A stretch of DNA of 64,000 nucleotides from an uncultured Methanosarcinales archaeon (GCA_964351975.1 CAYGPK010000003.1:91617-155616), one strand, 5' to 3'. Positions 28,314 to 50,200 are shown, numbered from the stretch's first letter. Notes: generated from the sequence alone by a model not told the origin. Numbers and translations: made by a program.

Positions 28314-30239
28314 CTACCAGAATAACCCTCTGGAGATTTTAACGTTTTCAACAGCTTCAAGTTTTTTTAGTTTTGTTGCAAGTTCTTCAACATAAGGTCC
28401 ATCTAAAAGAGTTACAGTCATATTCACATCTCCATTTTTTAGAGATTTAGAGTTAACACTTAAGATATTAACATTTTGACTTGAGAAAGTATTTAGGATG
28501 TCCATTAATAATCCAATTTTATCTTTTAGAATCATAGTTATTGTAATTTCTTTTTCTTTTTCTTCTTTCCATCTTAGTTGAATTTTTTCACTAATTGTAT
28601 GTTTTGCATTATTACAACTCGCATTATGAATAACTAATTCTTTATTTTTACCTAAGACTCCAACTATTTGATCACCATAGTCTATTTTACAACAACCTGC
28701 TTTTCTAACTTTTTTAAATTCATCAATTCGTGTAATTTTTGATCTTAATTTACTAAATAAAACTTCATCAACTTCAATATTTTGTTTTCCACTATGCTTA
28801 AGTTGAATTGAATTTCTAATTTTTAATTTTGCTTTGTTTGTTTTAACAAATGTTAACCATTTTTCTGAGGGTTTAACAGATTTACTTGTTATGATTTCAA
28901 TTATGTCTCCACTTTTTAGAGTTTTATCAATTGTAGTCATAGATCCATTAATTTTTGCCTTATATGCTCTTTCTCCTATTTCAGTATGAACTGCGTATGC
29001 AAAATCTAAAACTGTTGCATTTTCAGGTAGAACTATTACATCATTTTTTGGTGTGAAAGTAAATATTTCATCTTCAAAGAAGTCAAATTTTAAAAGTTTT
29101 AGAAATTCAGCACTATCTTTATGTTCATTTTCCCATTGAAGAACTTCACGAAGCCAACCTATTTTTTTTTCAAATTTTTTATCTTCTTTTAGATTTTTAT
29201 ATCTCCAGTGAGCTGCAATTCCAAACTCTGCAAGTTTGTGCATATTCTCAGTTCTTATTTGTAATTCAACAGGACATTTAATTGCTCTTGAGAAAATTAC
29301 AGAATGAATAGATTGGTATCCATTAGCTTTAGGGTTTGTTATATAATCTTTCAATTTATCAGGAAATGCTTGAAAATTCTCATGTAAAACACCTAGTACT
29401 GTATAACAAGATGTTATGTCTTTTACAATTATTCTAATTGCATATAAATCAAATATGTCTTCAAAAGTTTTAGCCTTATCTTTGATTTTTTTGTATATGC
29501 TATAGAAGTTTTTTGGTCTTCCAAGAACTAATACATTTTTAACATTATTAGCATCTAATACATCTTTAATTTCTTTAACTGATTTTTCTACAATTATTTC
29601 TCTTTGAGTTCTTTTTAGATTGACTTTATCCTTAATTAAATTATACATCTCAGAGTCTGTGTATTTAAATGCTAAATCTTCCAATTCCCATTTTAGTGAA
29701 TAAAGTCCCACTTTTTGTGCTATTGGAACATAAATTAAAATTGTTTCTTTAGAGATTCTAGTCTTTTTTTCTTCAGACATATCTCTAATAGTTCTCATAT
29801 TGTGTAATCTATCACATAGTTTGATAATTAAAATTCTGATATCCTTTGCACTTGCTAAAAGAACTTTTCTAAGGGCTTCAATATTTACTTCTTCTTTTTT
29901 TCTTCCAAATCCGGTTATTTTTGTTAATCCATCTACTAATAACTCTATTTCTTCACCAAATTCTTTTCTTATTTGTTCTAAATTAACCTCTGTGTCTTCA
30001 ACAACATCGTGTAATAAAGCTGCAATTATTGATTGGTCATCCATACCTAAATCTGCGACAATTCTTGCAACATTTAATGGGTGTGAAATAAATGGTTCTC
30101 CTGATTTTCTTTTTTGATAAATATGAGCTTTTTTTGAAAATTCATAAGCTTCTTCAATTAACTTTTTATTATGTCCTGGTTTTAAGTTATCTAAAAAATC
30201 TTTAAAATCCTTATTTATCTCGCTTAAATCTTTTGCCAT
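28314..30239 (-). CDS. long RelA/SpoT homologue: (p)ppGpp hydrolase (HD) + synthetase + TGS + ACT
   Basis: HPLNVARIV...ALLHDVVEDT (HD), RIIV...GYQSIHSVI...ELQIRT (synthetase), FTPKNDVIVLPENATVLDFAYAVHTEIG (TGS), C-terminal ACT-like LKDKIGLLMDILNTFS. Confidence 0.9.
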   Translation of the reverse strand: MAKDLSEINKDFKDFLDNLKPGHNKKLIEEAYEFSKKAHIYQKRKSGEPFISHPLNVARIVADLGMDDQSIIAALLHDVVEDTEVNLEQIRKEFGEEIELLVDGLTKITGFGRKKEEVNIEALRKVLLASAKDIRILIIKLCDRLHNMRTIRDMSEEKKTRISKETILIYVPIAQKVGLYSLKWELEDLAFKYTDSEMYNLIKDKVNLKRTQREIIVEKSVKEIKDVLDANNVKNVLVLGRPKNFYSIYKKIKDKAKTFEDIFDLYAIRIIVKDITSCYTVLGVLHENFQAFPDKLKDYITNPKANGYQSIHSVIFSRAIKCPVELQIRTENMHKLAEFGIAAHWRYKNLKEDKKFEKKIGWLREVLQWENEHKDSAEFLKLLKFDFFEDEIFTFTPKNDVIVLPENATVLDFAYAVHTEIGERAYKAKINGSMTTIDKTLKSGDIIEIITSKSVKPSEKWLTFVKTNKAKLKIRNSIQLKHSGKQNIEVDEVLFSKLRSKITRIDEFKKVRKAGCCKIDYGDQIVGVLGKNKELVIHNASCNNAKHTISEKIQLRWKEEKEKEITITMILKDKIGLLMDILNTFSSQNVNILSVNSKSLKNGDVNMTVTLLDGPYVEELATKLKKLEAVENVKISRGLFW

Positions 30240-37688: not shown

Positions 37689-38198
37689 TTAATCTTTACC
37701 TGAGATTAACTTTTTCAGAAAATTGCCACTCCACAAACTAACATTTGTCACTCTAGCAAGTTCTTCTGCACTTTTGGTAAATTTATTATTTGTAACAACT
37801 AAAGCTTTATCACAGCCATAATATTCTCTAGCAGAAATAACTTCTTGAACTGCTTTATTTCCAACTGGTTTAGAATACCTTTTTGCTTGAACTGCTGTTT
37901 TAACTCCTCCCATAGTTAAAATTAAATCTGCACCTTGATCGTTAACCTTTGGAGTTAGTTTTACATAATAACCAATATTTCTGAAAACCTTTTCTAAATA
38001 GTTTTCAAATTCTAATCCAGACATTGAATCAATATCAATAGTGCTATCTTTTTTGAATTTAAAATATCTAATGAAAAGTACTAAAAATATTATTGTAAAT
38101 ACCACAAATAATACTTTACTTAATTGATATATAATCCCTAAAAAAACAAGTAAAAAACTTATTATGTAATATATGACTAAAAACTTCCAAATTTTCAT
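37689..38198 (-). CDS. membrane-anchored Mrr-like restriction endonuclease domain protein
   Basis: Two N-terminal TM helices followed by the Mrr_cat pattern GLEFENYLEKVF...VNDQGADLIL...AVQAKRY...ALVVTNNKFTKSA. Confidence 0.7.
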   Translation of the reverse strand: MKIWKFLVIYYIISFLLVFLGIIYQLSKVLFVVFTIIFLVLFIRYFKFKKDSTIDIDSMSGLEFENYLEKVFRNIGYYVKLTPKVNDQGADLILTMGGVKTAVQAKRYSKPVGNKAVQEVISAREYYGCDKALVVTNNKFTKSAEELARVTNVSLWSGNFLKKLISGKD

Positions 38199-38201
38199 TG
38201 T

Positions 38202-39437
38202 CTATACCTCTTGAGGTATTGGTGCATTAAAGAAGTTTAAATCGAATGTTTCCATCTCTTGTATTAATACACAAATATTATGACAAATAACTTTACATAA
38301 TAATTCATTAATTTGAGCAGTCCAATTCTTTGATTTTAAAGTTTCTCCAAATTTCTTTTTAATCATACTAAAAGTAGTTTCTACATTAGATCTTTTATGA
38401 TAATGTTCCAAAAACTCTTCTTGATTATATATGAAATATCTTAAAGCTTTTTTCCAAAACATTCCATGCATATTAGTTTTCTTTAAAGTAACATTTTTCT
38501 TGAAAGGAATAAATGGTGTCGCTCCAACTTGATTGATTAATTTAAGGTTATCTCTACTTGAATATGCTTTATCTGCTGAAAATTCCCTTATATTAAATAT
38601 CTTATTTGTTTTCTCTAATAATTCTTTTAATTGAGGTGAATCATGCTCAAACTCAGATGTAATGTTAACTGCTGAAATAACATTCGTTTTAACTCCACAA
38701 ACTATATGACATTTTAACCATTTCCTATATCTCTCTTGCGTTGAGTGTTTATACTTACTCCAATTTTGAATACTTGATGTTCCAAATCCTGATGAATCTA
38801 TTGCAAAATCACATTCCACTTCATTTAATGGTTGAGCTGTTGCCATAACTAATTCTTGTAAAATTTCAGTAACATTATCTTTATTAAAATAATCTTTTAA
38901 GGTTGTAAAAGGGATATCCTTCTCAATATAACCAAAATCCTTACTAATTCTCATGTCAGATGTAAATCTCCTTCCTGAGAGTCCTGAATACACTTTAAAT
39001 ATCATTGAATACAAAACATCATTAAGAAAAGCTTTAGGTCTTCCCATAATTGCTTGGTCTGTTTCAAAATTTCTAACAGCATCTGAGAGAATTTTAAGAA
39101 ATTGTTCTTTTTCCTCCTTTTGAGCTTTGTTATAATTACTCCAATCTTGAGTATATGTTTTCTTTTTTACAACCTCTTCCTCTTTAGGTTCTATATTATT
39201 ATTTACTTTATATTCAACTGCATAGATATGTTTACAGTTACCATTATGTTTTTGATGGTCTTTGCATGAGCATGATGTATTGAATCCATTTGTTTTAACT
39301 GTGTAAAATAAAGTTTTATTAGTTTGTGAAGTAACTCTCCAAGTCCTATCATTTATCTTTATTATTTCTAATTCTTTTGCAAGAAGAAGCCCTCTCTCTT
39401 TTCTTTTGTTAGTTGTTTGTAGTTGTGTGGTTTCCAT
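38202..39437 (-). CDS. DDE transposase (IS4/IS5-like) with N-terminal SWIM zinc finger
   Basis: SWIM motif CSCKDHQKHNGNCKHIYAV. DDE candidates are AIDSSGFG, SADKAYSS and RSNVETTFSMIKKKFGETL. Confidence 0.75.
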   Translation of the reverse strand: METTQLQTTNKRKERGLLLAKELEIIKINDRTWRVTSQTNKTLFYTVKTNGFNTSCSCKDHQKHNGNCKHIYAVEYKVNNNIEPKEEEVVKKKTYTQDWSNYNKAQKEEKEQFLKILSDAVRNFETDQAIMGRPKAFLNDVLYSMIFKVYSGLSGRRFTSDMRISKDFGYIEKDIPFTTLKDYFNKDNVTEILQELVMATAQPLNEVECDFAIDSSGFGTSSIQNWSKYKHSTQERYRKWLKCHIVCGVKTNVISAVNITSEFEHDSPQLKELLEKTNKIFNIREFSADKAYSSRDNLKLINQVGATPFIPFKKNVTLKKTNMHGMFWKKALRYFIYNQEEFLEHYHKRSNVETTFSMIKKKFGETLKSKNWTAQINELLCKVICHNICVLIQEMETFDLNFFNAPIPQEV

Positions 39438-39962: not shown

Positions 39963-40841
39963 TTATTCAAACATATTTAAAAAAACATTAGTTACTTTAT
40001 TATATTCTTGTAAAGAAATATGATTTTTATATAAATAATGATTAATTCCTACATTTCGTGAATTTCTTCCTTGCATAAAGTTAGCAATATCAAATGGAAT
40101 ATTATTCTCTATAAGCTTGGTGAAATTGTATTTTCTAATATACTTTAAAGGTATTAATTTATTTCTTTTAATGTATGTAACATAACCTGAAGAATCATAA
40201 TTTTTCATTAATTCTTTATTTTCTTTTAATAATAGATAAGTTTTCCTTGAGATATAAATATAATATGAATACTTATACCCTCTAAGATAAAAGTTAGGAT
40301 ATGAACAAACATCTTCTTTGATTTCAAAATCTTTAATATTGAAATTTGAAAAGAAATGTTCTAAATCTTTTATTCTCTGGCCTGATTCAAGTAATACTCT
40401 TAAAAAGATTATTTCTTTAAGATATCTTTTCTTAGTATGTTCAATTAATATACTAATATCTTCATCTTTTGCAAACCTTTTGTCTATATTACTAAGGAGT
40501 TTAATATAGAATCTTGCTTTATATTCTTCAAGTTGAGTATAACTAATAAATCCTTTTAAGAATAAGTAATTAAAAAATACTCTATATGAAACTGAAATTG
40601 CTTTAATGGTTCTTTCATTTGTTCCTATAACTTCATTGGCTGTTTTGAATTTCTTCTTTAAACAAAAGTCTAAAGTTGAAATAATGTTTTGCCTATAATC
40701 CTTTGAATACATTTCAAGCCATTTTAAAAAATCTTCTCTATTTTTAGAGTAAAGTCTCATGATGCGAGTAAAATTTTTATCTAGGTCTTTGTTTTTTTGA
40801 ATTAAGACTAATTTCTTAATTGATTTACTTTCTATTCTCAT
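39963..40841 (-). CDS. divergent tyrosine recombinase/integrase (tentative)
   Basis: SAM-like N-domain (YRVFFNYLFLKGFI), LLESGQRIKDL (Arg I), LKYIRKYNFTKL (K/HxxR-like), FMQGRNSRNVGINHYLY (candidate catalytic Tyr). Confidence 0.55.
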   Translation of the reverse strand: MRIESKSIKKLVLIQKNKDLDKNFTRIMRLYSKNREDFLKWLEMYSKDYRQNIISTLDFCLKKKFKTANEVIGTNERTIKAISVSYRVFFNYLFLKGFISYTQLEEYKARFYIKLLSNIDKRFAKDEDISILIEHTKKRYLKEIIFLRVLLESGQRIKDLEHFFSNFNIKDFEIKEDVCSYPNFYLRGYKYSYYIYISRKTYLLLKENKELMKNYDSSGYVTYIKRNKLIPLKYIRKYNFTKLIENNIPFDIANFMQGRNSRNVGINHYLYKNHISLQEYNKVTNVFLNMFE

Positions 40842-40877: not shown

Positions 40878-41195
40878 TTAAAATAAACTTCTATAGATTA
40901 ATTCTATAATAAAACCTAAAAATCCTAGAATTATTATTCCTAAGATTGCATATAAAATTACTTTGTCTATTGAGGTTACATTTTTTTCTTTCTTTTTTGT
41001 TTTACCTTTATTAATAAAGTAATCAATAATCCACAATATACAAGCAATAGTTAACCCATTACCAAAAATTCTCCCTTTAATTGAGGGTGTAGCTCCAAAA
41101 ATAAGGCCTGAAATACCATATGCTAACGCAATCCATGCTAAAAGATTAAAAAACCTCTTTGTGGAGTTATGGAATTTTTCTATTAATTTCTTCAT
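40878..41195 (-). CDS. small 3-TM membrane protein
   Basis: 105 aa with three hydrophobic helices. It is the last small gene after the helicase-nuclease. Confidence 0.5.
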   Translation of the reverse strand: MKKLIEKFHNSTKRFFNLLAWIALAYGISGLIFGATPSIKGRIFGNGLTIACILWIIDYFINKGKTKKKEKNVTSIDKVILYAILGIIILGFLGFIIELIYRSLF

Positions 41196-41226: not shown

Positions 41227-44200
41227 TTATTCTTCATTCCATTTAGGACAATAAAATTTCACTCCACAAAATCTACAAGGAGTATCATCTTTTGCTATAT
41301 TGAATTCACTTTCAAAATCACTTGCAATACTATTTGCAATATCTATAAACTCTTGTTTAATCTCTGAAATTTTGAAACCTTTAGTATTACCTGGTGCTTC
41401 AACTTCATCTCCATTAACTGTAAACTCAACAGGTTTCTCTAGTTTTAGCATTTCAAGAGTTAATTTTTTAGGTTCTTTCTTTAGTCCTTCCCTGCATGCT
41501 AAAGCATAATATCCTAACTGGTATGCTCTTTTTTTTGCATCAATTGCACTTTTATTTGTTTTATAATCTATGATTTCTAAAGTACCATCTTCAAATTCAT
41601 CTACTCTATCAGCAAGTCCAAAGAATTTAAACCCTTCAATCTCTAAAGGTAAAGCAATCTCAGTTACTGACTTATCATTAATCTTATCTTTATTTCTTTC
41701 CCAGAATATTGAAATTAAATTCACTGAGTCCTCTATTGGCATATTTTTCCATTCATCTTTTTTAACTAGTTCTTTAGCATAATCTTGAAATTCTTCTTCA
41801 GTTTTGAATTTTTTACATACTCCATCTTCAAGAACTTGATGAACAAATGAACCAAATGATGCTGCATCTGCTGTGTCATCTAAATCATTTTTAGATGGCA
41901 TTTGTAATATTCTCGTCAATTCATATTTTTTAGGACATTCCTTATAATCAATTAAAGCTGTAGGTGATAAAGTTACCATAGATTTATCAAATTTAAGGCC
42001 ACTGAATCCCTCTTTAGCTTTTAGTATTAGTTTTTCTAATTCTTCATTTGGTAAATTGTTTAAATTAATAACTTCTTCAGTTTTAACTGATTTATATTGT
42101 GAAATTAAATCTAAAATCATTTCATTATTATCAGAATCTAAAGCTTCTATAATTTGAATTTTAATTGAATCAAGTAATTTATCTTTTTGTCCAGTTGGAG
42201 CAATAGCTGTATTTAATTCTTGTTCATCTAAAATATATTCAATCATATCATGTTCAACTTTCACTTGTGTTCTCCAATCTTGATATCCAATCTCATTTAA
42301 GAAGATAGATTCTGAATTAGAATCAGTTGAACCTTTATAATCTCTTGCAAAAGTTAAAATTAATTCATTTTTTGCTCTAGTCATTGCAACATATGCAAGT
42401 CTTCTTTCTTCAATTAAAAGCATTTCTTTTTCATATTCCTTAATTGCTTTCTCTCTTTCTTTATCTGTCAATTCTCCTTTTTCTTCTAAGTAAATTTTTA
42501 AGTCTGGCAAAAGGGATTTAGGAATCAATGGTTCGTTTTGAGTTCTAGTAACAGGGAATCTAGATTCAGCCATATTTGATACAATTACAACTTCATATTC
42601 AAGTCCTTTAGATGCATGAACTGTCATGAACCTAATTGCATTATCATTTTGGATTTCTGATGCACTAATTGAGACTCCAAGTTCTCTTAATACTTCCATA
42701 TAATCTATTAAGTTGTTTAAATCATCTCCATGAAATTCTCTAAATGATTTAACAACATCATAAAACTTTTTCATGTTCATTAATGACTCAATGTTTTGTG
42801 GTGTTCTCTTATATGTGAATGCTCTGTTAAGTCCAGTTATTTCATATATTTCTAGAACTAATTCTTCTAGAGGGAGATTTGATTTTTCATGAAGTAACCT
42901 AACTTTATCAATAATTGACTTAATTATAATCTCTGAATTCTTATTTAAACTTAATTTATCTATTGCATGTAAAAGAGCTTCATCAATTGACATATCTTTA
43001 TTTGATTTAAGGTATCTTCCAATTTTTAGAGAATCTTCCATTGATAACAAATTCTTATAATGAAATAAATTCCACCAAGATTGATCTCCTGTTGAAGTTC
43101 TATTTGTTAAGTTATTTAACATTGAAAGGTATGATACTGTAGTTTTGATTTCTCTTTTATTTAGAAGGTTAGTTTTACCTGCTTGTGCTACAGGAATATT
43201 TCTTTGCTTAAGATACTCCTTTAGATAATCTCCTTGCCTATGAGTTCTAAATAATACACAAATTTCATTAGCAGGAATACCTTGCTTTAGTTTTTCTTCA
43301 ACTAAATCTGCAATTACTCTTGCTTCTTCATCTTTGTTTAATGTTTCAATTACTTTAACTTTATCTCCAGTTCGATTTTCAGCATTTTTAGTTTTAAAAC
43401 AATCTTCATGATTTTCATAATTATTTTTAATTAAATCATGAGACACATTTAAAATATTATCAGATGATCTCCATGATTCAACTAAATTAATTTCATCATC
43501 TTTAGTTGCATCATATACTTTTTTGAAATGATTAAAACTTTCTTTATATGAACCTCTAAATCCATAAATTGATTGGTTAGGATCTCCCACAACAGTAATA
43601 TTTTTATGTTCACTTGCAATGTATTCAATTAACTCAAATTGAATTTTGTTAGTGTCTTGAAATTCATCAATGATTACATACTTAAATTTGTCAGTATATT
43701 TCTCAGCACCAAACTTTCTAAATAATAATAAAACATAATGATTCAAATCGGAATAATCAATATATTTCTTTTCTAGTTTGATTTTATCATAATCCTTCCA
43801 TGCATTAACAAATTTATTGAATGAATTATATTCTTTGTATATTTCTAAGAATTGTTTGATTTCTTTTTTAGTTTGTCTATTCTCTTTAGTATTTTCATCT
43901 AAATGAATTGTGTTTAGAATAAATTCTTGTTCTTTAGCATAAGTTTCTAGGTTTTCTAAATCTGTATGTTCTTTTAGTTTATCTTTAATTGTATTTAAAA
44001 ATTCTTCAATTTGTGATATATCGATTCCAAAGTCTTTTGCTGTTGAAATTGTTGACACATATCTACTTGCCCAATATGGAGTAATTCCTAATTCTCTATG
44101 CATTAAAACTTTAGCATCATCAGGTAAAAGAATTTCAAACTCGTTATCTAAATTAATTAAATGAGCATCTTCTTTTAAAATATCTAAACAAAAACCATGA

Positions 44201-44445
44201 AATGTTCTAATAGTAGGAAGTCTTAGTGATTGTAATTTTGACATTACTTTATTTTTTAATGAGTTAGTTGCTTCATTTGAAAAAGTTAAAGCTAAGATTT
44301 CCTCAGGTTGAAATTCTTTAGATTTAACTAGATTGTCTATCTTTTCAATTATTGTGTGTGATTTTCCAGTTCCTGCTCCTGCAAGAACTACACATGCTCC
44401 TTTGATTTTCTCTACTACTTGTTTTTGTTCTTTGTTTAAAGTCAT
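41227..44445 (-). CDS. UvrD/Rep-type SF1 helicase fused to a C-terminal Cas4/AddB-like Fe-S PD-(D/E)XK nuclease
   Basis: Helicase motifs AGAGTGKSHT, IIDEFQDTN, VVGDPNQSIYGFRGS, SWRS, TVHASKGLEYEVV, EERRLAYVAMTRAK. Nuclease: CPKKYEL, GLADRVD, EIIDYKT, YQLGYYA, CRFCGVKFYCPKW (4 Cys). Confidence 0.85.
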   Translation of the reverse strand: MTLNKEQKQVVEKIKGACVVLAGAGTGKSHTIIEKIDNLVKSKEFQPEEILALTFSNEATNSLKNKVMSKLQSLRLPTIRTFHGFCLDILKEDAHLINLDNEFEILLPDDAKVLMHRELGITPYWASRYVSTISTAKDFGIDISQIEEFLNTIKDKLKEHTDLENLETYAKEQEFILNTIHLDENTKENRQTKKEIKQFLEIYKEYNSFNKFVNAWKDYDKIKLEKKYIDYSDLNHYVLLLFRKFGAEKYTDKFKYVIIDEFQDTNKIQFELIEYIASEHKNITVVGDPNQSIYGFRGSYKESFNHFKKVYDATKDDEINLVESWRSSDNILNVSHDLIKNNYENHEDCFKTKNAENRTGDKVKVIETLNKDEEARVIADLVEEKLKQGIPANEICVLFRTHRQGDYLKEYLKQRNIPVAQAGKTNLLNKREIKTTVSYLSMLNNLTNRTSTGDQSWWNLFHYKNLLSMEDSLKIGRYLKSNKDMSIDEALLHAIDKLSLNKNSEIIIKSIIDKVRLLHEKSNLPLEELVLEIYEITGLNRAFTYKRTPQNIESLMNMKKFYDVVKSFREFHGDDLNNLIDYMEVLRELGVSISASEIQNDNAIRFMTVHASKGLEYEVVIVSNMAESRFPVTRTQNEPLIPKSLLPDLKIYLEEKGELTDKEREKAIKEYEKEMLLIEERRLAYVAMTRAKNELILTFARDYKGSTDSNSESIFLNEIGYQDWRTQVKVEHDMIEYILDEQELNTAIAPTGQKDKLLDSIKIQIIEALDSDNNEMILDLISQYKSVKTEEVINLNNLPNEELEKLILKAKEGFSGLKFDKSMVTLSPTALIDYKECPKKYELTRILQMPSKNDLDDTADAASFGSFVHQVLEDGVCKKFKTEEEFQDYAKELVKKDEWKNMPIEDSVNLISIFWERNKDKINDKSVTEIALPLEIEGFKFFGLADRVDEFEDGTLEIIDYKTNKSAIDAKKRAYQLGYYALACREGLKKEPKKLTLEMLKLEKPVEFTVNGDEVEAPGNTKGFKISEIKQEFIDIANSIASDFESEFNIAKDDTPCRFCGVKFYCPKWNEE

Positions 44446-44446
44446 T

Positions 44447-45715
44447 TTATATTAATATTGAATGTAATTCCTCTTTCAATTTTTTTCTTTCTTCATATTT
44501 AAGTAAATTTCTATGAAGGTTTATAGTTTTAATTTTAATGTGAATATTTTCTTCATCATCTGATTTAAGATTTATGTTCTCAAAATTAACATTAAATTCA
44601 TATTCAGGATAAAGTAAGATTATATTTTTTATTTCTTGCTTATCAAAATATCGCATTCCATACATAAACATTTGATAAATATCTCCTTGTGAAACTCCGT
44701 AATTCAATTTATCTTTAATTAAACGTTTATATTTAGTATCAATAATCAAAATTTCATTAGAGTTATTCTCTAAATAAATGTCAGGTTTTAATTGAAATTT
44801 AGAAAAATTAGGACTTATTTTATTATTAAAAACATATTTGTCAGCTTTTTGGGTTTTAATTCTTGAAAACTCTATTTTAAATTCTTTTTTTATAAATTCA
44901 CCTATAAATTCTTCAAATAAATTATTCATATTAAACATTATAGAAAAACTATCAAAATTTTTAGAATTTAAAGAAACTGAGTTTCCAAATAATAATAGAA
45001 TTGCAAGATTAAAACTATTCATATAAATTTTATTTAATCTATTAAATGTAATTTTTAAAGTTTCATGTTTTGAAATGTTTCTTAGCTTAACATCTTGAAG
45101 TATAAAATCACATTCAGTTAATAATTTGAAATTTGAATTAGATTTTGTGATTTTAATTAATTTTTGAACAGTTGCTTTAAATACTTGATTTAATAAATTA
45201 TTTTCTGTAAATTCATCAAACTTAGAATAAAATTTTACTTTATTAAATAAATTAAATTTGAAATGCTTTGACATCAATAGCTTACCTTTAAGATAATTTG
45301 TATTTTCTTCTTTATCTTCATAGTTTCTTATTAAGTCCTTCTTTAACAATTCCAATAAATTTTTAGAGAATAAATAGATTATCGCTTCAAAAATATTTTC
45401 ACTTTTACTTAAAGATGAAATTTCAGTTTCATTAAGGTTCAATTTCTTTGTATAAGATAACATGAATAATAAATTATTTACAATAAATGAGTTATCTTCA
45501 ATATTATTTGAAAATATTTTAGGTAAGACTTGAATTGTTTTATTATTAATCTGAACAACTCCAACATATTTTCTTGCTTTTATACCTTTAGAAGTAAATT
45601 CAAATAAATTATCTTTATTTAATTTATTTAATTTTTCTATTAATACCTTTTCTTTTAAAGATAAATCATTATAAGATTCATATTCTAAAAGAGATATAAC
45701 CTTTTTATTCCTCAT
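44447..45715 (-). CDS. mcrC: McrC-like nuclease subunit
   Basis: GVVQINNKTIQVLPKI (McrC N-domain signature) and LKPDIYL...LIIDTKYKRL (PD-D/ExK core). It overlaps the McrB gene by 11 nt. Confidence 0.8.
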   Translation of the reverse strand: MRNKKVISLLEYESYNDLSLKEKVLIEKLNKLNKDNLFEFTSKGIKARKYVGVVQINNKTIQVLPKIFSNNIEDNSFIVNNLLFMLSYTKKLNLNETEISSLSKSENIFEAIIYLFSKNLLELLKKDLIRNYEDKEENTNYLKGKLLMSKHFKFNLFNKVKFYSKFDEFTENNLLNQVFKATVQKLIKITKSNSNFKLLTECDFILQDVKLRNISKHETLKITFNRLNKIYMNSFNLAILLLFGNSVSLNSKNFDSFSIMFNMNNLFEEFIGEFIKKEFKIEFSRIKTQKADKYVFNNKISPNFSKFQLKPDIYLENNSNEILIIDTKYKRLIKDKLNYGVSQGDIYQMFMYGMRYFDKQEIKNIILLYPEYEFNVNFENINLKSDDEENIHIKIKTINLHRNLLKYEERKKLKEELHSILI

Positions 45716-48137
45716 CTTTATTTTCTTGTTTTTCTAAATTAATAATCTTTTCAAGGTATGGCATAATATCTTCATTAGTTGTTTTAAAATCTTTTAATTT
45801 GAATAAATCTTCATCTATGTCTAAATTTGAATTATTTCCAAATATTTTTCTAATTTCTTCTGTTCTTTTCTTCTCAAAAAAATCATTTCCCAAAACTAAC
45901 TTTAATCTTTCTACATCTCCATAAAAGTATTCTTCCAATAATGGGATTATTTCTGTGATGAAAATTTCTTTTATATCCTCTTTATTTTTAACTAGCTCTT
46001 CATTACAAAAAAAAGAATGTCCTATTAAATGATCTTTATCTAATAAGAATTCTATTCTATTATTTAAATTCTCAAATAGGGATCTAAGATTAAAACCCTC
46101 TATATCATTACTAATCAATTCAGAATTTGGGAGCATTTCAATAAATCCAAATCTTCTCCTAAGTGCAATATCTAATGTTGCAATACTTTTATCACTTGTA
46201 TTCATAGTTCCAATTATATAAAGATTAGGAGGTATTGTAAATGGTTCATTTGAATAAGGAAGGTTTAATATTAATTCCTCTTTTTCACCTAATCTTTTAT
46301 TTGATTCTAATAATGTAATTAATTCCCCAAATATCTTTGAGATATTTCCTCTATTTATTTCATCTATAATTAAAAAGAAAGGTTTTTCTGTTTCTTTTTC
46401 AATCAAGAAACTTTCTTTTCTTATATTCTCTAAATTTTTATTAAGAAAATTCAAAACTGATTTATAATATGGTTCTAATCCACCTTTGATATATTTAGAG
46501 ACTTCTTGATTAGAATCAAAGAATATTTTTCTTAATGTTTTTATAGATAAACTATGACTTCTATCCTTATTTTTTTTCTCAAAAAAAATAGTTTTATCAT
46601 TGTATTCATAAATTGAAATTTGAGTTCTTTTAGTTGGAATCATAATTACTTCTTCATCTTCTAATTTTTCAAAACATTTTTCTATTAGTTTATTAAAATC
46701 AACTTCTTCTCCTGAAATTCTTGATCTCAAATAATTTTCCTCTGCTAATCTAGAAAATTGTTTAAATATCCCGTCTTCAATTTTATAAGAAATTTCTTTA
46801 TTTCCGTCAATATTGGGTTTAATACCTTCAATAAATTCTTCATACGAATATGATTGATGGAAAGTTATGAACTTAATTCTGTTTTCTTTCTGTAAAGTTT
46901 CAAATATTTCACTTGGAAAGTACTCAATAATTTTATTTTTTATAGAGTAAGTCTTTCCAGTACCAGGAGGACCATATAATATTATTTGTTTTTTGATTTT
47001 TAATAAATTTTTAGGTGAGACATTATTGTCTACAATAGGTAAATTTTCACCTTTATCTATCTCAGTTTTAAAATATGAATGTTTTAAAGTAAATTCATAA
47101 ATCAATCTATCAGCAATTAAATTCTCTTTCATATTATCTTCTTCAGTTGAATTTAATTTTAAATCTGATAAATCTAAATATTTTTTTAATTCATTTATTT
47201 CTTTATTAAAATAATTTTTGTAAGTTTTATAATCAGAAATATTTGCAAATTTTAAAAAATTGTCAACTCTACTATTTTGTATGTAATTTGTTTTTGAACT
47301 TAAATTATATAATCCAAAAATTTCATTTGCTTTACTTGCTAAACCTGGAACTTTTCCCCAGTTAGTTTTATTCTCATATACTGATTCAACAAAATTAAAA
47401 TATGTGGAAATTAGACTTGTACAAAACCCTTTTATAAAATTTCCAATTGATTGTTTATTTTGAGCATTTATATTCTCAGTTAATTCTACAAATAACTTTA
47501 TTATTTCTTCACCATCAAAAAGATTTTTAGTTAAATTATTTAATATGATAAAAAAATTATCTTTAGTTAATCTCTCATTGTTAGAGATTGAATCATTATA
47601 GGAATATCTATTTGAAATGTTATTATTATGAATTATTTCTTTATATTTTTTGTCTATCTCTTTTTTCTCAAGGTCTGATTTTGAATTCCAAAAATTATAT
47701 ATTTGTTCTATATTTCTTTTAATAATCTTAAAATAATTGATGTTGTGTTCATATTCTTTTTGATTTTTAAGGTTATCATTATTAATAAATTCATTCCTGA
47801 TAAGTTCAAGGTTTGAGTCTGTTTCTGATATTTGGTTATTATTTTTAGTTAAAAAATCAATATAAGCTTGAACTACCGCACTAGGCCCTCCATTATGATA
47901 TTTAAGATTAAAATCATTCAAGTCTCCATTAGATAATAATCTTTTTTTAAGTTTAACATAAAAATTTATATCTAATATATGGTAAAAAGATTGAGAAATT
48001 TCATTTTTTTCCATTAACTTATCATTCAATTTATTAAAGTCTTGTAAGTAATAACTAGGTGTTTTAGGTCTAGTTTTTAGAAAATTCTCAAATCTTTCTT
48101 TCAAATTTTCAGTTTTTATTTCATTATTTTTTACCAT
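45705..48137 (-). CDS. mcrB: McrB-like GTPase (AAA+) with ~380-aa uncharacterised N-terminal domain
   Basis: LYGPPGTGKTY, FITFHQSYSYEEFIEGIKP, FLIIDEINRGNISKIFGELITLLE and IIGTMNTSDKSIATLDIALRRRF (McrB signature). The N-terminal 380 aa are helical with no motif recognised. Confidence 0.85.
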   Translation of the reverse strand: MVKNNEIKTENLKERFENFLKTRPKTPSYYLQDFNKLNDKLMEKNEISQSFYHILDINFYVKLKKRLLSNGDLNDFNLKYHNGGPSAVVQAYIDFLTKNNNQISETDSNLELIRNEFINNDNLKNQKEYEHNINYFKIIKRNIEQIYNFWNSKSDLEKKEIDKKYKEIIHNNNISNRYSYNDSISNNERLTKDNFFIILNNLTKNLFDGEEIIKLFVELTENINAQNKQSIGNFIKGFCTSLISTYFNFVESVYENKTNWGKVPGLASKANEIFGLYNLSSKTNYIQNSRVDNFLKFANISDYKTYKNYFNKEINELKKYLDLSDLKLNSTEEDNMKENLIADRLIYEFTLKHSYFKTEIDKGENLPIVDNNVSPKNLLKIKKQIILYGPPGTGKTYSIKNKIIEYFPSEIFETLQKENRIKFITFHQSYSYEEFIEGIKPNIDGNKEISYKIEDGIFKQFSRLAEENYLRSRISGEEVDFNKLIEKCFEKLEDEEVIMIPTKRTQISIYEYNDKTIFFEKKNKDRSHSLSIKTLRKIFFDSNQEVSKYIKGGLEPYYKSVLNFLNKNLENIRKESFLIEKETEKPFFLIIDEINRGNISKIFGELITLLESNKRLGEKEELILNLPYSNEPFTIPPNLYIIGTMNTSDKSIATLDIALRRRFGFIEMLPNSELISNDIEGFNLRSLFENLNNRIEFLLDKDHLIGHSFFCNEELVKNKEDIKEIFITEIIPLLEEYFYGDVERLKLVLGNDFFEKKRTEEIRKIFGNNSNLDIDEDLFKLKDFKTTNEDIMPYLEKIINLEKQENKDEE

Positions 48138-48175: not shown

Positions 48176-49213
48176 TTATAGGAGAAACTTCAAAATACCT
48201 CTTCTTGGTTCAAATATAATTCCTTCGTGTTTTAATTTTTCAATAATTGAACTTACTAATTTAGGATTTAAACTAAAGTCTTCTGCTCTCAATAAAACAT
48301 CCTCAATTAATATCTCTGGTTGTGAATCTCTAAATTCTTCTATAATTTCAGTAACTTGCTTATATTCACTCCTATCTGAAGTCGTTATTCCTGAAGTTAT
48401 TCTATCTATATCTAATTCTCCTTTTTTTGGATCAATTCCTATCTTCTCAAGACAATAACTATAAAGATCAATTGCACTTTGAACTTCGTTGGCTTCTCCT
48501 AAGTCTTTATCTTGTAATTTAGTATAGTTCTCAGTAATTACCAATATTGAATTAAGTTGTCTAGCTGTTATTAATACTCCTTTAAACTCATCATCATAAG
48601 TTGCATTTCTTATATCCACATAGAATTTTTTTATTTTTTCTAAAACTTCATTGCTTAATTTAACATTTATATTTTTTAGATCATTAAGATTTTTTTTCAA
48701 CTCCTCATCAATACTAGGTAAATTATTATCATTAACATAGTTATTAAATGATTTTTCAGCAATTAATCCATCTCTTTTCTTATCAGGGATGTCTCTCATA
48801 ATAAATATTAAATCGAACCTTGAAAGAACACTAGGACTAAAACTTATTTGCTTTACTATATCTGCATAAGGGTCAAATCTACCTAACTTAGGATTAGCTG
48901 TGGCTAAAATACTTTTTTCTTCATTAAAATATTTCAAACATTCATTATCACTCATCTTATCAAATCCATCCAATAAAATATAATTCTGTGATTTGATTAT
49001 TTTAGTTATTTCTTTTTCTTTTGGAATTTCAATATTTTCAAAATTACTAATGGACTCAATAAATTGAGATTTTCCTGAACCAGGATCACCAATTAATAAT
49101 ATGTTAAATGGTTTTTTTGATAGGAATTGTATAATAAGTGATTCTTTGATTTTACTATATCCAAAAATATTTGGAAAAATTACTTGAGTTATTTTTTCTA
49201 TTTTATCTTTCAT
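48176..49213 (-). CDS. MCM-family AAA+ module lacking the N-terminal OB/Zn domain, with degenerate Walker B, plus C-terminal winged helix
   Basis: ILLIGDPGSGKSQ (Walker A), LLDGFDKM (canonical MCM is DEFDKM), ILATANPKLGRFDP (sensor 1), LSRFDLIFIM (Arg finger), ITARQLNSIL (sensor 2 region). Confidence 0.7.
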   Translation of the reverse strand: MKDKIEKITQVIFPNIFGYSKIKESLIIQFLSKKPFNILLIGDPGSGKSQFIESISNFENIEIPKEKEITKIIKSQNYILLDGFDKMSDNECLKYFNEEKSILATANPKLGRFDPYADIVKQISFSPSVLSRFDLIFIMRDIPDKKRDGLIAEKSFNNYVNDNNLPSIDEELKKNLNDLKNINVKLSNEVLEKIKKFYVDIRNATYDDEFKGVLITARQLNSILVITENYTKLQDKDLGEANEVQSAIDLYSYCLEKIGIDPKKGELDIDRITSGITTSDRSEYKQVTEIIEEFRDSQPEILIEDVLLRAEDFSLNPKLVSSIIEKLKHEGIIFEPRRGILKFLL

Positions 49214-49532
49214 TTTTTAGTAATTTGAACTTCATTTTTAAAATATTAATTAACTTGGGATCATCTTTTTTATAGATATCTTCAATTTCTAATATTTTAA
49301 TTTTTGACATAACTGAGACTTTGTTGTGGAGTTCTAATATCTTGTCATATTGTGCTTCTTCCATAACAAATATACTTTCAGACCAACTTAATTTAGTTTT
49401 TAAATCATCATTAGTATATATTCCAATAAAATCTGTTTTGTCTTGAGGAAACATTTCCTTCCAAAGTTTAGAAGCTGAAGGACTTCTATACTTACCTTGA
49501 TTACAAACAAATAAAATATTCATTCTAAGCAA
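49203..49532 (-). CDS. low-molecular-weight phosphatase-like protein (CX5R)
   Basis: NILFVCNQGKYRSPSA matches the LMW-PTP/ArsC P-loop V-C-X5-R-S. It is only 109 aa. Confidence 0.5.
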   Translation of the reverse strand: MLRMNILFVCNQGKYRSPSASKLWKEMFPQDKTDFIGIYTNDDLKTKLSWSESIFVMEEAQYDKILELHNKVSVMSKIKILEIEDIYKKDDPKLINILKMKFKLLKNER

Positions 49533-49887
49533 TTAATGGCAATCCCATAGGTGTTGTTGAATCTAATGCTAAATGAGATGCATAAGAACAAATCATTGAT
49601 TGAAAATATTTCTTTTGTTTAAAATTTAAATTAGTATTATTTTCTATAGCATTCCACAATTTTGGAAGAAGTAAAGTATTTATTGAAACACTATGTCCTA
49701 TACTTCTATGATTAGGATTTGTAGGTGGATCTATTCTATCTGCTAATAAACCAAAAAAAACAGAACCTAAAGAAACAGCTAATAGTTCACCCAAATCAAA
49801 CTGTTCATTTTGAATTCTATGTTGAATAATATAATTTGAAGTCCCAACTAAACCACCAACTAATGCATGTGTATTTGCATTGGGCAT
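49525..49887 (-). CDS. DUF457/YdjM-like membrane-bound metal-dependent hydrolase
   Basis: N-terminal THALVGG, central HRSIGHS, C-terminal HLALDSTTPMGLPL, which is the characteristic His-rich pattern. Confidence 0.6.
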   Translation of the reverse strand: MPNANTHALVGGLVGTSNYIIQHRIQNEQFDLGELLAVSLGSVFFGLLADRIDPPTNPNHRSIGHSVSINTLLLPKLWNAIENNTNLNFKQKKYFQSMICSYASHLALDSTTPMGLPLIA

Positions 49888-49888
49888 T

Positions 49889-50200
49889 TTACTTTTTACC
49901 TCCTTTTTTGAACTTAGACATAAGTTTGCTTATATTAGTTCTATTTTGAGTAACTTTAGCTATTGGCCTTCCAAAATGTCCTTTAGTTGAAGTTGTTATT
50001 GTAACTTTTTTCCCTTCAATTTTGTTTTTTAAAGTAGATTTTGATTGCTTATATCCACTTTGTCTTTTCTCAGGTGTATTTACCTTCTCCAATCTAATAA
50101 AATTAGAGCCATTTACTTTTCTCTTTACTCTGAAAGTATCTCCGTCAAGAACTTTATCAACAGTTCTTGTAACTTTTGTTGGTTTAGTTTTTCTTACCAT
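49889..50200 (-). CDS. mini thermonuclease (SNase-like) protein
   Basis: VLDGDTFRV...IRLEKVNTPE...FGRPIAKV aligns to the SNase core (DGDT, RLxxxDTPE, YGRxLA), with Asn in place of the Ca-binding Asp of DTPE. A TATA box lies 22 nt upstream. Confidence 0.6.
   Translation of the reverse strand: MVRKTKPTKVTRTVDKVLDGDTFRVKRKVNGSNFIRLEKVNTPEKRQSGYKQSKSTLKNKIEGKKVTITTSTKGHFGRPIAKVTQNRTNISKLMSKFKKGGKK

Follow-up and report, generated by a model that had tools for sequence, protein, structure and literature searches.

A candidate variable defence-island slot: McrBC beside a conserved UvrD-Cas4-type helicase-nuclease in an apparently Woesearchaeota-like DPANN archaeon

McrB hexamers and McrC translocate along DNA at the expense of GTP and cut DNA bearing the mark that is read by the McrB N-terminus. 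In a 64,000-nucleotide (nt) stretch of archaeal DNA (GCA_964351975.1, CAYGPK010000003.1:91617-155616; the whole stretch is called the window hereafter), mcrB and mcrC are followed directly by a gene for a protein of 1072 amino acids (aa) that joins a UvrD-type helicase to a Cas4-like nuclease. Does this helicase-nuclease work as a third subunit of McrBC, as an earlier note on this DNA had proposed, or is it a gene with a life of its own, next to which McrBC has come to lie? To answer this question, we analyzed the window together with related loci from other assemblies (designated by L-numbers). The reading that we favor, and to which we give about an even chance, is that McrBC occupies a variable slot of a defence island beside a conserved, promiscuous helicase-nuclease of the UvrD-Cas4 type, possibly a RecBCD-like end processor, in a Woesearchaeota-like DPANN host. 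On this reading, the helicase-nuclease is a widespread DPANN member of the fusion architecture and not an McrBC subunit.

The matches that assign domains to McrB, McrC, and the helicase-nuclease are strong and not attributable to chance. The McrB translation contains the motifs GPPGTGKT, FHQSYSYEEF, DEINRGN, and MNTSDKS, the last of which is the canonical NxxD signature. It matched Pfam AAA_5 (1e-12) and NCBIfam McrB (2.7e-43; 148 bits, which does not reach the curated equivalog cut-off of 637), in agreement with the GTPase AAA+ assignment made previously from MNTSDKS and FHQSYSYEEF. The McrB motor is 45–50% identical to that of the ordinary McrB proteins of Caminibacter, Campylobacter, Vibrio, and Thermococcus. 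McrC matched PF10117 over the entire profile (positions 1–318; 1.1e-72), and its catalytic PD-(D/E)XK motif is intact (KPD...IIDTKYK...YQ); the PD...DxK...Q pattern is kept in seven aligned McrC proteins. As predicted from these motifs, mcrB-mcrC is a complete, canonical NxxD-type Type IV restriction cassette. Because the catalytic residues of McrC are conserved, there is no need for the helicase-nuclease to take the place of McrC cleavage, an option that the earlier note had raised.

The helicase-nuclease matched the Pfam families UvrD-helicase (1.3e-64), UvrD_C (4.6e-48), and PDDEXK_1 (PF12705; 3.6e-28). Its best solved relatives are PcrA and UvrD, and AdnB, AddA, and RecB match as well. In an alignment of 12 family sequences, C837, C1057, and C1060 are invariant and C1066 is at least 90% conserved, and D946, D960, K962, Q976, and Y980 are invariant. 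These matches and residues bear out the union of a UvrD helicase with a four-cysteine PD-(D/E)XK nuclease that had been noticed before, and the protein is apparently an active SF1A helicase with an Fe-S nuclease of the RecB/Cas4 type. Hundreds of full-length relatives with 37–88% identity were found (about 120 among the matches listed, mostly full-length), and the protein is about 50% identical across many DPANN lineages. The few named sources are mostly Woesearchaeota, Nanoarchaeota/Nanobdellota, and Pacearchaeota, together with Micrarchaeia, and more distant relatives occur in Methanoperedens; full-length matches at 25–30% identity are UvrD-nuclease fusions of Saccharibacteria and Patescibacteria. 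A viral or proviral origin of the family was considered and is unsupported, since viral contigs are essentially devoid of members. Elsewhere, the window encodes another helicase of the UvrD family, of unusual RQC-UvrD-HRDC architecture (Table 1).

A scan of metagenome contigs with an alignment of the nuclease domain yielded 80 loci, about 66 of which belong to the DPANN family and represent 47 non-redundant lineages; a scan of genome contigs with a full-length helicase alignment had responded to UvrD motifs of a generic kind and yielded nothing but UvrD and UvrD-nuclease genes of bacteria. Across the approximately 50 lineages, the helicase gene is constant while the gene upstream of it changes, being McrBC in three, very divergent GmrSD-type enzymes in four, and pAgo (prokaryotic Argonaute), AIPR, or housekeeping genes in others. 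The change is seen at close range. In L001, whose helicase is the nearest relative of that in the window (88% aa identity), a GmrSD enzyme lies in the same slot, between a remnant of an MCM gene and the helicase gene; L001 and the window are homologous over ydjM, over precisely the helicase gene, and over transposase-mrr, with GmrSD replacing McrBC. A GmrSD-like enzyme (DGQQR motif, GmrSD_N) is located 7 nt upstream of the helicase in L172 (helicase 70% aa identical to that of the window), and a pAgo fragment and an uncharacterized 400-aa protein lie upstream in L002 (77%). L086 and the McrBC-bearing locus L003 have helicase genes that are 87.7% identical in nucleotides, and the homology between the two loci is limited to this gene: both flanks differ, with GmrSD preceding the helicase gene and Cas12a-Cas4-Cas1 following it in L086. 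Between the GmrSD proteins of L001 and L086, identity is only 33% over 93 aa, which would fit independent acquisitions. In the helicase tree, these loci fall into one clade with the window, and 5 of its 7 informative lineages have a Type IV enzyme, of one or another very divergent family, immediately upstream. As judged from gene order, then, the helicase-nuclease keeps its position while the upstream genes (McrBC, divergent GmrSD, pAgo, and others) are exchanged.

Furthermore, a census of the neighborhood was made by scanning with Pfam the two upstream and the two downstream neighbors of the helicase in the non-redundant lineages (58 upstream and 83 downstream proteins). Among Type IV and nuclease-type neighbors, we counted GmrSD_N (5), GmrSD_C (4), McrC (2), Cas12a (2), AIPR (2), and Cas4 (3). 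Neighbors of restriction-modification (RM) type were N6/Eco57I methylases (4), C5 methylases (2), HsdS (2), Tsp45I, and ResIII, and other defence-type neighbors were BrxA, BrxB, RhuM, and DUF4268. The count for pAgo is two. Scans of single loci contributed a pAgo (PAZ) gene immediately upstream in L107, and they also showed that L091 has a Type III-like helicase and that a DUF262 protein is encoded two genes upstream in L087. At a distance of six genes or more from the helicase, the genes were mostly ordinary, encoding tRNA synthetases, EF-Tu, and ABC transporters, with few methylases and integrases. When hidden Markov models built from the loci were used, all McrB, McrC, and GmrSD matches fell within five genes of the helicase and none beyond. 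Type IV systems occupied 8 of the 145 gene slots within two positions of the helicase on either side, compared with 0 of the 155 slots at a distance of at least six genes (Fisher p = 0.003); adjacent Type IV systems are known from nine lineages once L172, which was added later, is counted. Type IV enzymes are the most frequent immediate upstream neighbor of the helicase gene. This concentration near the gene, as against far from it, suggests that the helicase gene is a focal resident of DPANN defence islands.

The family has been met in such company before. Hudaiberdiev et al. (2017; PMC5704561) described the UvrD-Cas4 fusion as the largest branch of pfam12705, found in mesophilic members of both archaea and bacteria, either alone or amid defence genes that vary; the fusions stand beside Type III RM, Dcm/Vsr, or Schlafen-HTH genes, or in non-conserved contexts, and were predicted to be ancillary in multiple defence systems. 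McrB, McrBC, and Type IV restriction are not mentioned in that text, where the one 'Type IV' refers to CRISPR, and UvrD, Cas4, and RecB go unmentioned in the McrBC census of Bell et al. (2024; PMC11090510). The window protein shares with this family the UvrD-like SF1 helicase, the PF12705 Cas4-like nuclease, the four conserved cysteines, and the variable defence neighbors, and the Schlafen-HTH neighbor is found here in L132, between the helicase and McrBC. We place the protein in the UvrD-Cas4 fusion family by architecture. In contrast to the published contexts, the recurrent immediate neighbors in our loci are Type IV enzymes (McrBC and GmrSD), plus pAgo and Cas12a. What is new is that exchangeable Type IV cassettes recur, though not obligatorily, immediately 5' of DPANN UvrD-Cas4 genes; the parts themselves are of known kinds.

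Several observations weigh against a functional tie between the helicase-nuclease and its upstream neighbors. Many lineages have housekeeping neighbors (thermopsin, FtsZ, HAD hydrolase, Asn synthase, APS kinase, acetate kinase, and peptidase M16), and the helicase gene could thus serve in chromosomal repair and adjoin a hot spot for insertions; most of the approximately 50 lineages have no Type IV gene nearby. Several loci of the window's own clade descend from a common ancestral frame and do not count as independent cases. Of the eight adjacent Type IV systems entered into the orientation test, seven are co-directional with the helicase, which is unremarkable (p = 0.27) because 70% of adjacent genes are co-directional. 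In addition, co-occurrence is biased on the McrBC side because the loci were found through the helicase, and the closest non-syntenic relatives of this McrBC (L166, L167, L169, and L177) are plain mcrB-mcrC pairs with unrelated genes downstream.

These observations lead to the alternative of pure adjacency, in which the helicase-nuclease is a vertically inherited housekeeping enzyme of double-strand-break repair or recombination, its 5' flank serves as a landing hot spot for mobile defence cassettes, and no functional link to McrBC exists. We regard this as possible, though doubtful. It would account for a protein that is conserved across DPANN lineages and missing from viral contigs, for flanks that both vary at 88% nucleotide identity of the helicase gene, for the housekeeping neighbors, for the integrase, insertion sequence (IS) element, and MCM remnant nearby, and for an orientation and spacing that are not significant. 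However, defence genes, notably those of Type IV, concentrate in the adjoining positions across independent lineages, and the family has already been tied to defence contexts in bacteria and archaea (PMC5704561). Moreover, the separate RQC-UvrD-HRDC helicase of the window could cover housekeeping roles.

A dedicated three-component modification-dependent system, in which McrBC recognizes the target and the helicase-nuclease is the obligatory processive effector, is very unlikely in our assessment. The junctions speak for it, and the coordinates confirm them as the earlier note gave them: mcrB and mcrC overlap by 11 nt (45705–45715), and a single base (44446) lies between the stop of mcrC and the ATG of the helicase gene. 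However, gaps or overlaps of 10 nt or less join 13 of the 39 same-strand gene pairs in the window (33%) and 47% of those in the related loci. Because such junctions are widespread in these compact genomes, the tight spacing of mcrBC and the helicase gene is not informative, and translational coupling, considered as functional evidence, was dropped, co-orientation likewise being at the base rate. The gene arrangement permits co-transcription of mcrBC and the helicase gene.

The gene order itself provides further points on both sides. It recurs in the Woesearchaeota lineage L003-5 (GCA_020637525.1 and two read-set assemblies) as ydjM...MCM remnant-mcrB-mcrC-helicase...integrase. L003 and the window align in a single blastn high-scoring segment pair, which has about 71% nucleotide identity and extends from the part encoding the McrB motor across mcrC and the helicase gene, and the proteins of L003-5 are 59% (McrB motor), 55% (McrC), and 69% (helicase) identical to those of the window. 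A divergent McrC gene lies 11 nt upstream of the helicase in L097, which belongs to an unrelated helicase lineage, and McrBC is found two genes downstream in L131/132 (helicase, Schlafen-HTH, mcrB, mcrC). In L176 (3510–8568), an McrC that is 55% identical to that of the window is followed after 3 nt by a DUF2779 protein instead of the helicase-nuclease; as judged by eye, the N-terminus of this protein has a Cas4-like cysteine and a D...EVK motif, so that a different Cas4-like nuclease may follow McrBC there. Against a dedicated system, GmrSD or pAgo, not McrBC, stands beside the closest helicase relatives, most helicase lineages are without McrBC, the nearest non-syntenic McrBC cassettes are without the helicase, and the catalytic motif of McrC is kept. 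The McrB N-termini of the window and L003 mostly differ (only 79 aa align, with 37% identity), although the downstream genes are conserved. The protein with three transmembrane (TM) segments that had been reported after the helicase gene is present as a 105-aa open reading frame (ORF) with three hydrophobic segments, but it is absent from L001, L002, and L003 and was found in same-strain contigs only; it probably stands outside any system. Two further short assemblies repeat the helicase-TM-integrase order, with an unidentified partial ORF 1 nt 5' of the helicase. Of the three-component proposal, therefore, the recurrence of the order in L003-5, the proximity of McrC or McrBC in L097 and L131/132, and the clustering of Type IV genes stand; the obligate partnership is not borne out, as the neighborhood of mcrBC and the helicase-nuclease is conserved in a few lineages only and is not obligate across the approximately 50.

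Self-protection, in which the helicase-nuclease repairs or resects breaks made in the host chromosome by resident cutters (Type IV, pAgo, Cas12a, and RM enzymes) and is kept adjacent as it lowers the autoimmune cost, has a slim chance: the same neighborhood data and an architecture like that of the recombinational repair enzymes AddA, RecB, and AdnB agree with it, but no recombinase or other repair gene was identified beside the helicase in the annotated loci, where many neighbors have no family match, and sequence alone can neither tell it from the degradation model nor separate cooperation, a hot spot beside a repair gene, a dedicated complex, and self-repair from one another.

Comparison with known systems places the locus more closely. 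With the canonical McrBC of E. coli K-12 and Thermococcus gammatolerans, it shares the overlapping gene pair, the AAA+ GTPase with Walker A/B and NxxD motifs, the McrC with a DUF2357/PF10117 body and a PD-(D/E)XK site, and a variable McrB N-terminal domain. It differs in that the N-terminal ~375 residues of McrB have no recognized reader fold (DUF3578, EVE, or YTH), in its DPANN host, and in the UvrD-Cas4 gene 1 nt downstream. CoCoNuT systems of Type II/III also combine an McrB-like GTPase, an McrC homolog, and an SF1 helicase in an operon (PMC11090510), and the earlier note had suggested the comparison. However, CoCoNuT GTPases carry NxD whereas the window McrB carries NxxD (MNTSDKS), the CoCoNuT helicase CnuH is UPF1-like whereas the window helicase is UvrD/PcrA-like, and the CnuC nucleases of Type II/III are inactivated whereas the McrC site is intact here. 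On account of these three differences, membership was rejected and the locus is not a CoCoNuT; CoCoNuTs are nearly absent in archaea (PMC11090510). No HEPN or SmpB-like domain was seen in the window neighbors, save a marginal CARF-HEPN match (E 0.004) on the transposase; coiled coils were not searched for.

With AddAB, RecBCD, and AdnAB, the helicase-nuclease shares the succession of an SF1A motor and a RecB-family nuclease, and with AddB and Cas4 the Fe-S cysteine pattern C-Xn-C-X2-C-X5-C. Unlike AddAB and RecBCD, it is a single polypeptide with no AddB, RecC, or RecD-like gene adjoining, and its NCBIfam scores, those for AddA and RecB included, all fall far below the equivalog cut-offs. The PADLOC profiles GajB and RTasHel match the helicase core. 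The corresponding Gabija and DRT labels were rejected, as neither GajA (OLD nuclease) nor a reverse-transcriptase partner was found among 10 neighboring proteins; moreover, GajB has no C-terminal Cas4-like nuclease, whereas the window helicase has one.

We return to the favored reading of a variable slot beside a promiscuous helicase-nuclease, for which the following course can be proposed. The N-terminal region of McrB would bind a DNA mark. The McrB GTPase ring, together with McrC, would then translocate along the DNA and cut both strands, as is established for the family and as the intact motifs suggest here. UvrD-type motors move 3'-5' and require an end or a nick, and Cas4/AddB-type nucleases degrade single strands. 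The helicase-nuclease, probably co-transcribed, would load on the ends left by whichever cutter lies upstream and would unwind and degrade them, by analogy with RecBCD and AddAB after restriction in bacteria. A bolder version, which we put forward tentatively and consider unlikely, makes UvrD-Cas4 the fixed 'shredder' of a modular DPANN immune locus, on which the interchangeable upstream cutters (McrBC, GmrSD families, pAgo, and Cas12a) depend to turn a single break into complete destruction of the invader DNA; it presumes that DPANN archaea are without RecBCD/AddAB. In loci like L086, where Cas12a-Cas4-Cas1 follows, the shredder may feed spacer acquisition as well.

The part of McrB on which recognition would depend is its N-terminal region. 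Residues 1 to ~380 matched no Pfam family, and a search with this region among 1.84 billion representative proteins returned just 11 proteins at E ≤ 1e-3, all weak relatives; the absence of a recognized family, noted before, is thereby corroborated. Within it, residues ~10–100 form a small all-helical domain of five helices (pLDDT >90) with a conserved GDL..FN...G.PSA...Y..FL motif. This domain has neither a Pfam family nor a PDB fold match: models of the N-terminal region found no PDB fold at E < 1, the 380-residue model being mostly of low confidence. Its homologs are the N-termini of other McrB-like AAA_5 proteins and the tandem C-terminal repeats of T5orf172/MUG113 (GIY-YIG) proteins. The domain may be a nucleic-acid-reading module of defence proteins that has not been described so far and is the presumed candidate for the target-recognition part. 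Residues 106–352 are similar to the N-terminal region of another McrB, P0124 (annotated DUF8426).

P0124 deserves a remark of its own. The stored protein (locus L177, 1474–3960) has Trp at positions where Gly is expected (WPPWTGKT and RWNISKIF), and translation of the locus with table 11 does not reproduce it. Both observations suggest that the source is a UGA-recoding organism of the Gracilibacteria type and that the wrong code was used; relatives of the McrB N-terminal module would therefore occur in bacteria of the candidate phyla radiation too.

The neighbors of the helicase gene include further proteins of interest. In L086 (5465–16569), GmrSD, UvrD-Cas4, Cas12a, Cas4, and Cas1, and probably Cas2 too, lie in one co-directional array, with the helicase-nuclease directly upstream of the type V-A CRISPR-Cas module. 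An unknown protein of ~385–400 aa adjoins the UvrD-Cas4 gene in four lineages (L002, 524–1726; L124, 4124–5278; L135, 3364–4572; L132, 15992–17152). In one case this protein separates a pAgo fragment from the helicase, in another it follows McrBC, and in a third it precedes an N4/N6 methylase that is accompanied by a Type III-like restriction endonuclease (REase). It has no Pfam match in the two copies scanned (L002 and L132) and no convincing PADLOC match in any.

The window has a G+C content of about 25%, and the genes from that of the SNase-like protein to that of the Mrr-like nuclease form a co-directional minus-strand run from 50200 down to 37689 (Table 1). The 5' border of the slot is a truncated MCM gene, and L001, L003, and L086 have shorter MCM remnants at the corresponding position; remnants at the same border in four lineages suggest an old integrated element. 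On its other side, the helicase gene is followed by an integrase gene, an IS element, and the gene for an Mrr nuclease, and an integrase follows the helicase in L003 too. The integrase indicates that the region is mobile or island-like. A search for att-site direct repeats around the integrase and the island returned only AT-rich chance matches. The upstream part of the island encodes a Csa3/MarR-type regulator, a Type II REase, and a fused C5 and N6 methyltransferase whose gene overlaps that of the REase. As the island that holds McrBC also encodes a C5 methyltransferase, this McrBC must spare the C5 methylation of its own host.

Table 1. Features of the window, listed from high to low positions
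Feature	Residues	Position in window	Strand	Remarks
Fused C5 + N6 methyltransferase, 825 aa		53111-55588	-	Pfam DNA_methylase + Eco57I/N6_Mtase
Type II REase, 399 aa		51922-53121	-	PADLOC REase_II 4.4e-116
SNase-like protein		49889-50200	-	
YdjM		49525-49887	-	
109-aa protein		49203-49532	-	
Truncated MCM, 345 aa		48176-49213	-	C-terminal part of P-loop, lid, winged helix
mcrB, 810 aa		45705-48137	-	
McrB small all-helical N-terminal domain	~10-100	47838-48110	-	
McrB GTPase motor	~376-810	45705-47012	-	
mcrC, 422 aa		44447-45715	-	
UvrD-Cas4-type helicase-nuclease, 1072 aa		41227-44445	-	
SF1A UvrD/PcrA-like motor of the helicase-nuclease	1-~720			All UvrD motifs present
PD-(D/E)XK nuclease of the helicase-nuclease	~825-1072	~41230-41973		Four Fe-S-type cysteines
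105-aa membrane protein		40878-41195	-	Three hydrophobic segments by Kyte-Doolittle
Archaeal integrase		39963-40841	-	PF16795 4e-24
DDE transposase		38202-39437	-	
Mrr-like nuclease		37689-38198	-	
RelA/SpoT-type protein, full-length		28314-30239		HD_4, RelA_SpoT, TGS, ACT
RQC-UvrD-HRDC helicase, 719 aa		13871-16030		

Two side observations on the window may be added. The DDE transposase, which has a SWIM finger, and the small Mrr-like nuclease (37689–39437) recur together in L001 (6602–8377) with 79% nucleotide identity and may move as a unit; in L002, the transposase is found alone. In addition, the window encodes a full-length RelA/SpoT-type protein although the host is apparently a DPANN archaeon; to our knowledge, such proteins are uncommon in archaea.

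If the helicase-nuclease cooperates with the cutter upstream of it, the locus would provide an archaeal counterpart of the 'restrict then degrade' step of RecBCD and AddAB, and this would be a first concrete role for the uncharacterized UvrD-Cas4 fusion family. If the shredder version were also true, mcrBC and the helicase gene of the window would be one instance of a sensor and cutter joined to a common processor. If there is no cooperation, the locus is a canonical McrBC in a defence-island hot spot. The UvrD-Cas4 gene, beside which several unknown proteins have already been found to recur, could also anchor searches for new defence genes in DPANN archaea, whose genomes yield few systems to standard tools.

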